This document shows positions 9,207 to 62,292 of a stretch of DNA of 64,000 nt, one piece after another. The stretch is from Octopus vulgaris (taxonomy: Eukaryota), in assembly GCA_951406725.2 (NCBI GenBank), contig OX597839.1, positions 20,026,001-20,090,000 of the forward strand. Reading direction: 5' to 3'. The notes below the pieces were generated by a model. That model was not told the origin of the DNA, searched no databases, and saw nothing but the letters and a program-made list of their open reading frames with translations. A program made the position numbers and the translations under genes. Numbering within the stretch: position 1 is the stretch's first letter; each line of letters starts with the position of its first letter.

Positions 9207-9242
9207 CTTTTACGTTTCGAGCCAACGCTCTTCTACAGAAAG
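9207..9242 (-). ncRNA. Variant minimal hammerhead ribozyme motif (A6U core) in (TA)n-adjacent element ~9115-9290
   Basis: Minus strand reads cttt-CTGTAGA-a-gagc(gttg)gctc-GAAA-cg-TA-aaag: stem I, stem II and palindromic stem III ACGT. Confidence 0.55.
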
Positions 9243-9664
9243 GTACACAGAAAAAACAAGGAGAGAAACAAGGAGAGAAAAAAATATATACATATTGGTA
9301 ATCGGTGCGCATTCAAAGCTAGTGAACAGCAATGACGATACCGGTATGATTTTTAATTTCTTTAACAATTCAAAATAATGACTTTTATTCCTCTTAATTC
9401 TACTGCAGTTCATCTAATTGGATATATTTATCACGACTTTTTCATAAAAATCCTTTATTTTTCTGATATTCAATGTGCATTTTCGCTTTTTTCTTCTTAT
9501 TTTCCCTATATATATATATATATATATATATATATATATATATATATATATATATATATGTATGTATTGGGGAGAATTCACAAAAAAAAGAAAAAAAAGA
9601 CGAACACAGCTGGTGTAGACAACAAACGGATGTATTAGTATAACGCTCGGGAAGTGAAAAAGTG

Positions 9665-9698
9665 TTTAACGTTTCGAGCCTATGCTCTTCCACAGAAA
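9665..9698 (-). ncRNA. Variant minimal HHR motif, second copy (element ~9570-9770)
   Basis: Minus strand: ttt-CTGTGGA-a-gagc(atag)gctc-GAAA-cg-TT-aaa. Confidence 0.5.
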
Positions 9699-9841
9699 GG
9701 AACACAGAAGGAAACAACAAGGAGAGAAAGTAAAGAATATGCAATGGCTAGCGACCAATCATAGCGATATATAAATAAATAAATAAATAAATATATATAT
9801 ATATATATATATATATATATACATATGTATGTATATGTATA

Positions 9842-10117
9842 TCACGTGATCACGTGACCGACCAGACCATCAGATGTTGCTACACATCGCTGGTCACAAT
9901 GCGTTCGCATTGTTCTAGCCTGCTGGCTAAGCGAGCAGGCCAACAGAAGAAAGAGTGAGAGATAGAGTACAGCAGGGACACCACCCCTGTCGGAGCATCG
10001 TGAAGCCTTTAGGTATTTTCGCTCATTAAACACTCACAACGCCCGGTCTGAGAATCGAAACTGCGATCCTATGACCGCGAGTCCGCTGCCCTAACCACTG
10101 GGCCATTGCGCCTCCAC
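9842..10117 (-). mobile_element. SINE family C (head GGAGGCGCAATGGCCCAGTGGTTAGG, tail ...GGTCGGTCACGTGATCACGTGA)
   Basis: tRNA-like head with A/B boxes; tail shared with 51525-51645. Confidence 0.8.
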
Positions 10118-10196
10118 ATATATATATATATATATATATATATATATATATATATATATATATATATATATATATATACATATATATATATATATA

Positions 10197-10491
10197 CTAG
10201 CAGTATCGCCCGGCGTTGCTTGGGTTTGTAAGGGAAATAACTCTATGAGCATTTTTAGAGTTGTTATAGCCAAAAAATAGCAAAAAATGCATTAAAATGG
10301 AAAAAAATTATGGTAAATCTTTTTTTTAATCGTAGACTCATCATAGACGCGCGCTAATACCCAGAAGGGTTCGATATGAATCACGACTATAAGATACCCG
10401 GTATTGGTTAAACTGCACCGCAAAATGTGGAAGTAGTTAGGAATCTAAATCGCAGGAGACAGACACACAACTTCTCTTTTATATATAAAGA
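10197..10491 (-). mobile_element. Non-autonomous Helitron
   Basis: Minus strand starts TC(TTTATATATAAAAG) and ends in a GC-rich hairpin (CCCAAGCAACGCCGGG) followed by CTAG; inserted at A/T within (TA)n. Confidence 0.75.
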
Positions 10492-58377: not shown

Positions 58378-58590
58378 TTCTTTTATTCTTTTGCTTGCTT
58401 CAGTCATTTTGACTGCGGCCATGTTGGAGCAGCGCCTTTAGTCGATCAAACTGTCCATAGGGCTTATTCATTGTAACCATTGTGCTTAGTCTATCAGTCT
58501 CTTTTGCCCAACCGCTAACTTACGGGGACGTAAATACACCAGCATTGGTTGTTAATCGATGGTGAAGGAAAAACACAGACACCCCGAAAC
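58378..58590 (-). mobile_element. SINE family A, 3' half
   Basis: Family motif. Confidence 0.75.
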
Positions 58591-59388
58591 ACAAATACAT
58601 ACATACATATACACACACATGTACATATATAAATTATATAAGGTATTATGATTATCATTATTAGCATTAATAATAACAACAACAATAATAATAATAATAG
58701 TAATAATAATAATAATAATAATAATAATAATAATAATAATAATAATAATAATAATAATTCATTCGTTTATTGGCCACAAGGGTTAACAAAAATCAATTAT
58801 AACATAAAGGGACAACACGCAGGACGAAAGTTACAAAGGGTTTTGTCCGTTTGAAAAAGGTCCGTGTACAAAAGCAGGATGACAACGAAATATAAGTAAC
58901 AATTAAAACTCCCAATAGGAGGAGTAATATTAATAATAATAATAAGTGGCCAGCAAGTTTATAGCTATATAGGTAAAAATATACAAATAAATTAAGTAGG
59001 GTATTAGAATACCACTTGCTAGAAATAGAAGCTAACACTCCAAAACCACAGAATTTCTCACTAATAAAATACCCACGGCGAATGTAGCGAATATAAAAGA
59101 AATAGACTTACCGTATATGAAACTACAGAAGCAAGGAAGACAGATATTCCGGTCTGTCTGTCTGTCTTCGGAATATCCGTTTTTTTCTGGCTTCTGTAGT
59201 TCATAGAAGGTAAGCCTACTCACAATGCTTTGGCCGGCCCGAAGGCTATAGTAGAAGACACTTGTCAATGATGCCATGCAGTGGGACTGAACCTAGAACC
59301 TTGTGGTTAGGAAACAAGTCACTGCTGCACCTATTTACCTATATATATATATATAAACATATATATATATATGCATATATATATATAT

Positions 59389-59586
59389 GTAGGTCCCGGG
59401 TTGAGTCGGGGTTAACCACAGTAAATAAGGTACTCAATACATAGCAGAGTAAATTAATTTATTTTATAGAAGGAGCTTCTACAGGACTAGAACTGTTTCA
59501 TTCAAATGAAATCATCAGGAAGCTTGATGATTGCATTTGAATGAAACAGTTCTAGTCCTGTAGAAGCTCCTTCTATAAAATAAAAT
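59389..59586. mobile_element. PLE-like palindromic element in (TA)n with an intact HHR on minus (59474-59524) and a centre-deleted HHR on plus
   Basis: Near-identical to 41444-41643; the + copy has lost bases at the palindrome centre including C3. Confidence 0.75.
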
Positions 59587-61915
59587 ATGCATATATATAT
59601 ATATATATATATATATATATATATATATATATATATATATATATTCACACACACATATATAGACATATACATATAATATAGATAATATATAAATATATAT
59701 GCATATATACATATACGTACATACATATATATGTATATACACATGCATATATGACACAGGACACCACAGAACGTAAACAGCATGAAATACGGAAACAACA
59801 TAAAATACGAAATACGAAAACATGGAATACGAACTTTCTTTTTTCGAACAACGATACAAACGAATGGAAAACAAGACAAACAACATAAAAAAAACGACCT
59901 TTCAGCTGAAAAATATAGAATTCCTCATAAGTAATACAAACGTCGTAAATTCCCTGGCGTGGTTAATGAAGATATTATGCATTAATTGAATGTGTTAAAC
60001 TTATCTTTATTAATGTATATCGAATTATACATAGATATATATACAAGATTTACACAAATATAAGAGTTAGAACCTGAATTCTGAGCTATCAGCAGCCGCG
60101 GATTCCAGACTAATACCGAAATTCATCAGGGAGAAAACCCTGGTTTTACGTCGGTAAAAACCGTTGCGTGGTGTTTAGCGAAGAGCCATATTATCTCTAA
60201 CTGTGTACTGATCATTAAAGATGTGTCAAAGTATTTCTGTCTCAAAAATTGGATTAGATAGACAGACAGACATACAGATAGACAGACAGATAGGGAGATA
60301 GATAGGTAGACACACACACACACACACACACACACACACACACACACACACACACACACACACACACACAAACACACAGAGATAGATAGATAGATAGATA
60401 GATAGATAGATAGATAGATAGATAGATAGATAGATAGATAGATAGATAGATAAGTTTCTTTATTGGCCACACAGGGCTGCACACAGATGGGACAAGTTAC
60501 AAGGTAGAGCTTTTCTTTTGGGGGAGAAAAAAAAGGTAGATAGATAGATAGATACATACATACATACATACATACATACATATATACATACATACATACA
60601 TACATACATACATACATACAGATAAACAGACAGACAGACAGACAAATAGATAGATATGATGAGCTTCCATGCAATTTCCTTCTGACCAATTCACCACCAA
60701 GCTGTGAAGGCGTTGCTTAGCCCGAGGCTTAATAAGCAGGCAGGAGCCCAAGGTGCCATGTTTATTTTACATTTCTCATTAAAATTATAATTTCGAGGAT
60801 TCAAAAAGAAAAAAAAAATTATTTACGGCTCAAAATTTCAAGTACGGTAGCCTGCACTTAACTATATATAATCTATGCAGAAGACATGCTTGAAAAAATA
60901 TTCCTAACGTCATTCGATGCGCGCGCTTGTATGAGAGTGAGTGAGTGAGTGAGAGAATGAGTGAGTGAGAGAGTGAGTGAGTGTAAGGGTGAGTGTGCGT
61001 TCATTGTCTCTGTGTCGACCAGCGAGTGAAGATAGGTCAAGCGTAGTATCTCAATATCATACAGCTGCACGTGAGAGTCTTCTGCGCCCTTCACGCCTCA
61101 CCTCCCGATCTCTCTACTACCCACCCATTTACATCGCTACCCTCATAATCTGCTCTGCCCTCTCTCGTCTTACTATTATCTATCAGGGATTTTAATTCTC
61201 CCGAGCCGCCTTCATCTATTCTATCTATCCATTTGTATATCTATTTATCCGTCCATATATTCATTTGTCTGTTTATATATTTATATACGCATCTACCTAT
61301 CTATTTCCCTCCCTTTCTCTCTCCCTTTCTCTCTCTCTCTCTCTCTCCCAGTATGTACATATCGCTGCTATTATGTTAAACTGTCGTATGTCCTAATTTG
61401 GCCAAATTTGTTGTTTGTTTTTTCAATATCTATTTTTGCTTGCAATAACTGGTTCTTTTGGTCAAACTATCGTTTTCTGAAAAAAGCAACGTTTCGGACT
61501 TACGACACTTCTGCATAATAGCAACGAAATATATATATATATATATATATATATATATATATATATATATATATATATATATATAGATAGATAGATAGAT
61601 AGATAGATAGATAGATAGATAGATAGATAGATAGATAGATAGATAGATAGATAGATAGATAAGAAAGTTGGTTTGTGAAAGCACGTGGTTGAATATATAG
61701 AAAATAGTAAAAAGTGAAAAATCTACAGAAGGCTTAAAGGTTAAAAAATATATATATTTGCGTCAATATATCTGAAGAATATTAAAAAATTTTTCTTACA
61801 ATGACATAGTTTAGAAGAAAGACCGGTTTCGCGTTTAGCTTTTCAAATTTCTTGCGACTATATATATATATATATATATATATATATATATATATATATA
61901 TATATATATATATAT

Positions 61916-62090
61916 AGTTTAAATCTATAGAAAAACAAAAGACGAAGACAGGTGTATGAACAACAAGCAAGTGTATTAGTTTGACGCTCGGGAAAATGAG
62001 AAAGTCTTTTATGTTTCGAGCCTACGCTCCTCAACGGAAAGGAGTAAGAGAAAATAAACAGAGACAGAGAGAGAATGAAAAAGACTTTTA
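61916..62090 (-). mobile_element. (TA)n-adjacent element of the 9115 family with HHR-like motif 62006-62041
   Basis: cttt-CCGTTGA-g-gagc..gctc-GAAA-ca-TA-aaag. Confidence 0.55.
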
Positions 62091-62292
62091 AATTTCAGCG
62101 GTCCAGCATGCCTCACTGAACTTTCTACTCTTAGGACTTGCATTTCTGAACCACTTCCGGAGCTTTCAGCACCTCTCGTCATCCACATACCAGCATTCCA
62201 GCGGGATTACCACTGGGTCTAATGACTCTACTTTCCCGAATTACACTGGATTTTTTTCGGTGATGCATATGTATATATATATATATATATAT

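Follow-up and report, generated by a model that had tools for sequence, protein, structure and literature searches.

The 64,000-nucleotide stretch of Octopus vulgaris DNA analysed here (the window; contig OX597839.1, positions 20,026,001 to 20,090,000) contains short hammerhead ribozyme motifs in which a word, generally self-complementary, stands between GAA and the cleavage base. A preliminary description had named 14 loci with such words. On checking the window sequence the word is present at all 14, though AGTACT is limited to 37727 and the 39.2 kb copy has AATATT, and GAA is directly 5′ of the word at 13, the 31.47 kb site having GCA instead. That the words belong to ribozyme families, as was also claimed, holds for the eight loci with a hammerhead frame, i.e. 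a core N3-UGA-N-N8-A with at most one mismatch and at least four of the first five stem I pairs (9.2, 12.1, 23.1, 37.7 in its third tandem unit, 38.3, 39.0, 39.2 and 41.6 kb). The other six comprise a core-less family copy at 11.6 kb and five that are either doubtful (two with ACCGGT) or frameless (31.47 kb and both AGCT sites). AGCT at 8.6 and 62.16 kb lacks support as a family word, neither site having a credible frame, and together with 31.47 kb these were rejected as ribozymes. The CTAG-containing loop described at 41.6 kb does have its word, ACAGTTCTAGTCCTGT, in frame, but as a hairpin and not a palindrome. Seven families (A to G) and six words are left after the frame check, the first three families being placed as follows.

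12054..12097, plus strand: family A, intact minimal type I hammerhead (stem I CCAC/GTGG, core CUGACGA, 5-bp helix II); word ACAATTGT at 12085-12092, cleavage base A12093
11946..11989, minus strand: family A, intact inverted partner copy
38193..38298, plus strand: family B, core CUGAGGA, helix II region of 77 nt with GAC/GUC closing it; word ACAATTGT, as in A, at 38285-38292, stem I mismatched at its first pair
23034..23120, plus strand: family C, stem I of 6 pairs, core CUGAAGA, helix II region of 58 nt, damaged; word ACGATCGT at 23107-23114
11544..11648, minus strand: family C copy that lacks the catalytic core, with its word ACGATCGT at 11587-11594

The two family A copies form an inverted repeat of about 350 bp adjoining (TA)n. 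Families A and B have 15 nt in common and no more, and the 11.6 kb site, its core lost, is 93% identical to that at 23.1 kb. The next three families include two with unusual cores and one with a tandem array.

38968..39015, minus strand: family D, U3-A8 core (UUGAUAA); word ACATGT at 38973-38978
9207..9242, minus strand: family E, stem I CUUU/AAAG, helix II GAGC/GCUC, word ACGT
9588-9729, 48541-48691 and 61931-62082: further family E copies
39159..39208, plus strand: family F, intact; word AATATT, with U39201 as cleavage base, G3-C8 core (GUGAACA), stem I of 7 pairs and helix II of 5
37689..37843, plus strand: family F tandem of three 52-bp units
37496..37688, minus strand: family F, inverted 5′-truncated copy, AATATT at 37652-37657, core lost

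The family D window copy has one helix II mismatch, the pairing base being present in other copies, and the family E core, CUGUAGA, has U at position 6. In the family F tandem, units 1 (AGTACT) and 2 (AATATT) end directly after U16.1, with G at position 17 and no stem I 3′ strand; in unit 3 the word, cleavage base and stem I are present, and position 3 is A. Taking AGTACT as a firm sign of compensatory selection was rejected, as the word is seen in a single copy, at a tandem junction. The remaining family and the less secure sites, two of them absent from the preliminary list, are these.

41576..41626, plus strand: family G, core CUGAUGA, stem I of 6 pairs, helix II weak and with U.U at its base
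41529..41579, minus strand: family G, inverted partner copy
39474..39520, minus strand: family G copy
59474..59524, minus strand: family G copy, its inverted partner on the plus strand damaged
62861..62905, minus strand: tentative site H (new), core CUGACGA, word ACCTGGGT
49372..49430, minus strand: tentative decayed site I (new), core CUGAUGA, word ACCATATGGT
61815..61853, minus strand: doubtful, UUGAAAA core, 2-pair helix II, ACCGGT, stem I bulged
31232..31261, plus strand: doubtful, UUGAAAA core, ACCGGT, without credible stem I or helix II

Site H is a single copy whose word self-pairs through two G.U wobbles; the site folds otherwise, for which reason it is treated as tentative, and it may be a chance occurrence. 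At site I both stem I and helix II are broken. At 31.26 and 61.82 kb stem I has, respectively, two and three of its first five pairs and helix II has 1-2 pairs, with stem I/helix II closure lacking at 31.26 kb.

A perfect core (3-8 pair, GAAA and UH) is present at 12058+, 11985-, 38198+, 23039+, 39011-, 39166+ and 41582+; it has one mismatch in family E and is missing at 8.6, 62.16, 31.47 and 11.6 kb. Family A, in two copies, and family F have kept stem I and helix II intact, with B, C, D and G partly decayed, and just three copies (12058+, 11985-, 39166+) combine a perfect core with four or more contiguous pairs in each of these stems. To judge by their sequence, the majority of the genomic copies here have decayed and would be unable to cleave. 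In an Rfam scan (E ≤1) no hammerhead family is among the matches listed (150 of 337), which are mostly to microsatellites.

The helix III words of families A to F are perfect palindromes, that of G being a non-palindromic 4-bp hairpin with an 8-nt CUAG-containing loop, and five of the seven window words are 6-8 nt or longer. The outer A..U of a word forms an obligatory pair (15.1-16.1), which leaves the information to the inner 2-6 letters alone. A structure search that ignored palindromy (threshold score at least 6) yielded 21 matches, 8 of them, from 5 families, with a perfect inner palindrome; 30 local dinucleotide shuffles gave a mean of 8.4 matches and 0.2 palindromic ones (maximum 1). 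GAA followed by a 4-nt palindrome and H is by itself common, with 57 occurrences in the window versus 38 ± 6 in 60 shuffles.

For families A to F the folding energies of monomer helix III hairpins are unfavourable (+2.4 to +6.0 kcal/mol) or, for ACGT, no hairpin can form, whereas the homodimer duplexes are favourable (-0.2 to -10.0 kcal/mol). The palindromic words thus likely indicate cleavage as an RNA pair, as modelled from these energies. Family G is distinct in that its hairpin (-1.4 kcal/mol) could, on the same modelling, permit cleavage as a monomer; 12 of 16 positions of its word pair in a homodimer. The proposal in the preliminary description that palindromy reflects dimer-dependent cleavage is well supported, and had been published before, palindromic helix III and dimer cleavage having been reported for the hammerheads of Penelope-like elements (PLEs) in PMC4209133. 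In active ancestors two identical copies would have swapped strands to build the cleavage sites, giving rise to palindromic helix III words. From hammerhead topology, the GAAA of one copy would pair with U16.1 of the other, so that the partner would supply the cleavage base as well as the 3′ strand of stem I. Stem I and helix III would then both be intermolecular, and each family would consequently need only self-compatibility.

A different type of explanation, to which very little probability is given, is that palindromy is largely unselected and stems from the helix III pairs that are obligatory, together with symmetrisation of short inverted repeats at the DNA level, the RNAs acting as monomers aided by the protein of the element. 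Each word's outermost one or two pairs are indeed ordinary helix III pairs, AGTACT is in a single tandem copy, family G has its possible monomer hairpin, and an Anolis PLE hammerhead reportedly needed its protein in order to cleave (PMC11167929). However, the inner letters are perfect palindromes in A to F, as are 52 of 55 published words (41 of the 55 being 4 nt), a 2-nt loop such as that of ACGT is unable to close a hairpin, and single PLE hammerhead motifs were inactive where dimers and trimers cleaved (PMC4209133).

Strand-swapped dimers fit the closest known system, the minimal hammerheads (min-HHR) in pseudo-LTRs of metazoan PLEs (Cervera and De la Pena 2014, PMC4209133), with which the window motifs share type I topology, a short stem I, a very short palindromic helix III, a U3-A8 core variant, predicted dimer cleavage, many families per genome, and copies that are solitary or on opposite strands. 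They depart from that set in having several 8-nt words, one family with a G3-C8 core, one with U at position 6, two with 58-77-nt helix II regions, and no linked coding frame in the window; octopus is not among the taxa in the rows of its Fig. S3 covered here. The PLE short-stem-III hammerheads of Lunse, Weinberg and Breaker (RNA Biol 14:1499) are likewise described, in the title of that paper and in reviews, as having a palindromic stem III loop and dimer cleavage.

To judge from architecture alone, the fragments are likely dead end-pieces of PLEs. The motifs, their words, the inverted and tandem layout and the (TA)n flanks are directly observed. Inverted 5′-truncated or partial tandem arrangements are seen in family A (one pair), family G (two pairs) and the F array plus its inverted copy, and fragments of A, B, E, F and G terminate in (TA)n, the window itself being (TA)n-rich; inverted truncated copies and microsatellite targets are given as PLE hallmarks in PMC8557442. 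The repeat fragments, at 100-350 bp, are too short for a reverse transcriptase (RT) or GIY-YIG frame. Pfam matches to RT or GIY-YIG are absent from 145 scanned reading frames (202 candidates), with a few weak matches below curated cut-offs. A homologue search with the sequence upstream of the family E copy at 62.0 kb found nothing, and a resemblance of that sequence to a GIY-YIG C-terminus is unsupported.

This dearth of coding remnants, in the 145 frames and the one homologue search, is what would be expected were the fragments non-autonomous hammerhead repeats, retrozyme- or SINE-like, and not coding PLEs. The F array is moreover a tandem of short units, and animal retrozymes reportedly derive from PLE terminal repeats (bioRxiv 10.64898/2026.07.22.740005). 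The alternative is nevertheless rather unlikely: retrozymes, as characterised in PMC7229834, are 150-450 bp tandem units with a full hammerhead in each and canonical loop contacts, unlike the minimal, mostly solitary or inverted window copies, and in the F array a cleavage site is missing from two of three units. Parallels to the axolotl non-LTR retrozymes HHR_Amex1/2 of that paper are type I topology, a weak helix III and better cleavage as dimers, Amex2 having a stronger helix III and, as in family G, U.U at the helix II base. The seven min-HHR families are probably dead PLE ends whose palindromes come from strand-swapped dimers of identical copies in the active ancestors.

The preliminary description went further, and suggested that the words may restrict dimerisation largely to the same family, as a self/non-self code. 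Modelled energies suggest that the words would discriminate physically between families: among the 28 pairs of families A to G plus site H, mixed helix III duplexes are predicted to be weaker in 27, by more than 0.5 kcal/mol relative to the weaker homodimer. Such discrimination is what a selected code, in which co-resident families diverged in helix III and so avoided unproductive or interfering heterodimers, would give. Also in its favor, D and E, the sole pair with stem I cross-compatible both ways, differ in word, the window words exceed most published ones in length and variety, and no word change in D, F or G is among the difference rows listed (40 of 86). Palindromic RNA dimerisation loops exist elsewhere, in HIV-1 (DIS) and oskar; as presented in PMC7357161, those too are short palindromes driving RNA homodimerisation, but as kissing loops for packaging or transport, whereas the window palindrome completes a catalytic junction and has stem I as a second specificity element.

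Yet in orthogonality the words do not surpass 1500 sets of random palindromes, which perform equally or better under the two nulls, the mean heterodimer energy for seven words (site H included, family G left out) being 3.7 versus 7.0 kcal/mol with only A..U fixed, or 3.7 with position 15.2 kept. One word per co-resident family is not what is found, A and B both having ACAATTGT plus 3 stem I pairs in common. Among 55 published motifs, words are shared in 9 of 20 co-resident family pairs versus 5.9 by permutation, and 8 of 11 published multi-family genomes contain families with the same word. The 15.2-16.2 pair is kept across families in 42 of 56 ordered pairs, and two words occur inside one family F array. 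As a strand-swapped dimer needs a cross-paired stem I, stem I by itself blocks most mixed pairs, 24 of 28 in both directions (17 of 21 without tentative site H), counts that come from single decayed copies (family B mismatches even itself) and so inflate blocking.

From this small sample of seven families in one window, the tests point to a by-product of strand-swapped dimers rather than a code. A selected self/non-self code is unlikely, its probability being put very low, and equally improbable is a two-part version in which co-active PLE families of this repeat-crowded genome lengthened and diversified both palindromes and stem I under selection against cross-family dimers. The longer window words leave room for selection on word length. 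With strand-swapped dimers any palindrome would suffice and families would drift to different words and stem I sequences, mixed dimers being disfavoured as a by-product of drift, so that no added selection for a family code would be required; tandem terminal repeats on one transcript would further favor self-pairing. A code, if true, would mean that competition between mobile elements had shaped self-recognition at the RNA level, and would be a source of orthogonal dimerising ribozymes.

The design, a minimal hammerhead with a self-complementary word, was already described, and the natural G3-C8 and U3-A8 cores and the 8-nt words add little to it. Several families are added to the known class of dimeric hammerheads, and these cores and 8-nt helix III words make a handy set for assays that compare homodimers with heterodimers. 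Against metagenome contigs the family F pattern gave 0 matches; with a family E-like pattern 135 of 139 matches were essentially one other family, unrelated and with other stems, which carries family D's word ACATGT in 118 of 135 copies.

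The word that the preliminary description had read between GAA and the cleavage base, i.e. the helix III sequence, is present at all 14 of the loci it named. When graded on catalytic core, helix II and stem I, however, 8 of the 14 carry the hammerhead frame attributed to them, the rest being core-less, doubtful or frameless. At 11.6 kb the 23.1 kb site recurs with 93% identity and no core, two ACCGGT sites (31.26 and 61.82 kb) combine weak stems with a core-like UUGAAAA, and at 8.6, 62.16 and 31.47 kb the frame is absent, with even GAA missing at 31.47 kb. Seven repeat families were left after grading:

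Family A, 12.1 kb pair: word ACAATTGT
Family B, 38.3 kb: word ACAATTGT, as in A
Family C: word ACGATCGT
Family D: word ACATGT
Family E: word ACGT
Family F: word AATATT
Family G: a 16-nt hairpin, not palindromic

Only three copies have a perfect core and both stems intact. Further self-complementary words after GAA, absent from the original list, are single, decayed or core-less:

49379-49388, minus strand: ACCATATGGT
54180-54189, plus strand: AGTAATTACT
62868-62875, minus strand: ACCTGGGT

A ~190-bp inverted repeat without hammerhead frame contains ACCGGT, and a duplicated copy of this repeat stands nearby (31370-31590, 32228-32341). At core position 6, where A is conserved, each of the four family E copies (9238, 9695, about 48657 and about 62037; minus strand) carries U; the family may be an inactive or a variant ribozyme. 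A natural G3-C8 core occurs in family F (39166-39172, 37697-37703); in an Anolis Penelope-like element (PLE) hammerhead, cleavage was partly regained with the C3G/G8C double change (PMC11167929, in part). The helix II regions of families B (77 nt, 38205-38281; a long irregular hairpin is predicted for the insert) and C (58 nt, 23046-23103) are far longer than those of typical minimal hammerheads.

With a search descriptor blind to palindromy (cut-off score 6 or more), the window yields 21 matches, 8 of them, from 5 families, with a perfect inner palindrome, against means of 8.4 and 0.2 in thirty local dinucleotide shuffles; given 8 versus 0.2, frame and palindrome genuinely go together. Without the core, GAA followed by a 4-nt palindrome is uninformative (57 in the window, 38 +/- 6 in shuffles).

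The palindromes are also already known. The same motif occurs in PLE terminal repeats (Cervera and De la Pena, PMC4209133), with palindromic 15.2-16.2 and loop 3, a U3-A8 core variant, many families per genome, pairs on opposite strands, and weak cleavage by dimers and trimers where single motifs are inactive; two reviews citing Lunse et al. agree (PMC6765202, PMC6466107), all three sources in the parts available. The proposed tie of palindromes to dimer-dependent cleavage, described in PMC4209133, gains from computed energies: in A-F helix III is predicted to be unfavourable in the monomer and favourable as homodimer duplex. From hammerhead topology, should A15.1 of one copy pair with U16.1 of another, the partner would also supply the cleavage base and stem I 3' strand. 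Both stem I and helix III would then be intermolecular, so that a family would need compatibility with itself only.

A stronger proposal, that the words are a selected self/non-self code restricting dimerisation largely to the same family, is very improbable. Mixed helix III duplexes do fall short of the less stable of the two homodimers by more than 0.5 kcal/mol in 27 of the 28 pairs among A-H (H being a tentative site at 62.9 kb), the words of D and E, the one pair cross-compatible in stem I in both directions, differ, and no word change in D, F or G is among the 40 difference rows listed of 86. However, stem I is enough to block 24 of the 28 pairs both ways round (17 of 21 leaving out H), a count inflated by decay of single copies, and the seven window words of A-F and H (G excluded) show no greater orthogonality than random palindromes (1500 sets), their mean heterodimer energy of 3.7 kcal/mol comparing with 7.0 where only A..U is fixed and 3.7 where position 15.2 is kept. 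One word is common to A and B, whose similarity is 15 nt only, and the single array of F has two (AATATT, AGTACT; one case). Published families share words as well: in Fig. S3 of PMC4209133, whose rows are examples picked by its authors (55 words from 56 rows, a spliced D. virilis duplicate removed), ACGT accounts for 29 of 55, and two families of one genome use the same word in 9 of 20 such pairs, with 8 of 11 genomes holding a pair of this kind (permutation gives 5.9 pairs; probability of 9 or fewer, 0.94). An unrelated family with other stems, searched with core and helix II fixed and the word free, keeps D's ACATGT in 118 of 135 copies, the remaining 17 being non-palindromic there. This high-copy minimal hammerhead family, from metagenome contigs (L001-L112), is often laid out as inverted pairs or tandems, with an estimated 20,000 or so stretches matching its pattern. 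A literature search, mostly without full text, found no paper that proposes or tests such a code between families of these ribozymes; its closest parallels are the palindromic loops of dimerising RNAs, e.g. HIV-1 DIS (PMC7357161, in part). Family preference is physically plausible, and the best account makes it a side effect of strand-swapped dimers in which each family is compatible with itself.

The window copies themselves, judged by sequence, are most likely inactive relics. Members of inverted pairs lie on opposite strands and so have no cis partnering, and in the sole direct array, that of family F at 37.7 kb, two units lack both a cleavable base and the 3' strand of stem I. In runs containing the stretch, very many contigs cover the F and G ribozyme regions, and the base completing helix II of family D has 68,512 of 69,450 depth in run X1, which fits decayed copies of once-intact families. 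The Anolis hammerhead needed the protein of its element in order to cleave, and RNA-seq gave no reads ending at its site (PMC11167929, in part).

Truncated inverted copies and (TA)n targets, hallmarks of PLEs (PMC8557442, in part), are present in families A, F and G. Since neither a homologue search with the stretch upstream of the 62.0 kb family E copy nor a domain scan found a coding link (RT or GIY-YIG domain in 0 of 145 frames, scanned out of 202 candidates of at least 55 aa), we only infer that the families belong to PLEs. The window has 36% G+C and many microsatellites and short interspersed repeats. It has the look of non-coding DNA from an animal, probably an octopus to judge by its repeat sequences. 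At about 48900-49100 (minus strand) is a short reading-frame remnant with a putative likeness to a LINE reverse-transcriptase protein region. A SINE-like repeat of 183-214 bp stands in tandem at 18415-18845, 21550-22293 and 42398-42749, with many further dispersed copies.

Two families with no relationship to each other contain short tandem units that stop at the predicted cleavage site, or no more than about one base away, and begin again further upstream:

Window 37689-37836: 2 such junctions
Metagenome stretch L061:410-657: 3 such junctions

Cleaved RNA ends serving as templates, or microhomology slippage, could account for them.
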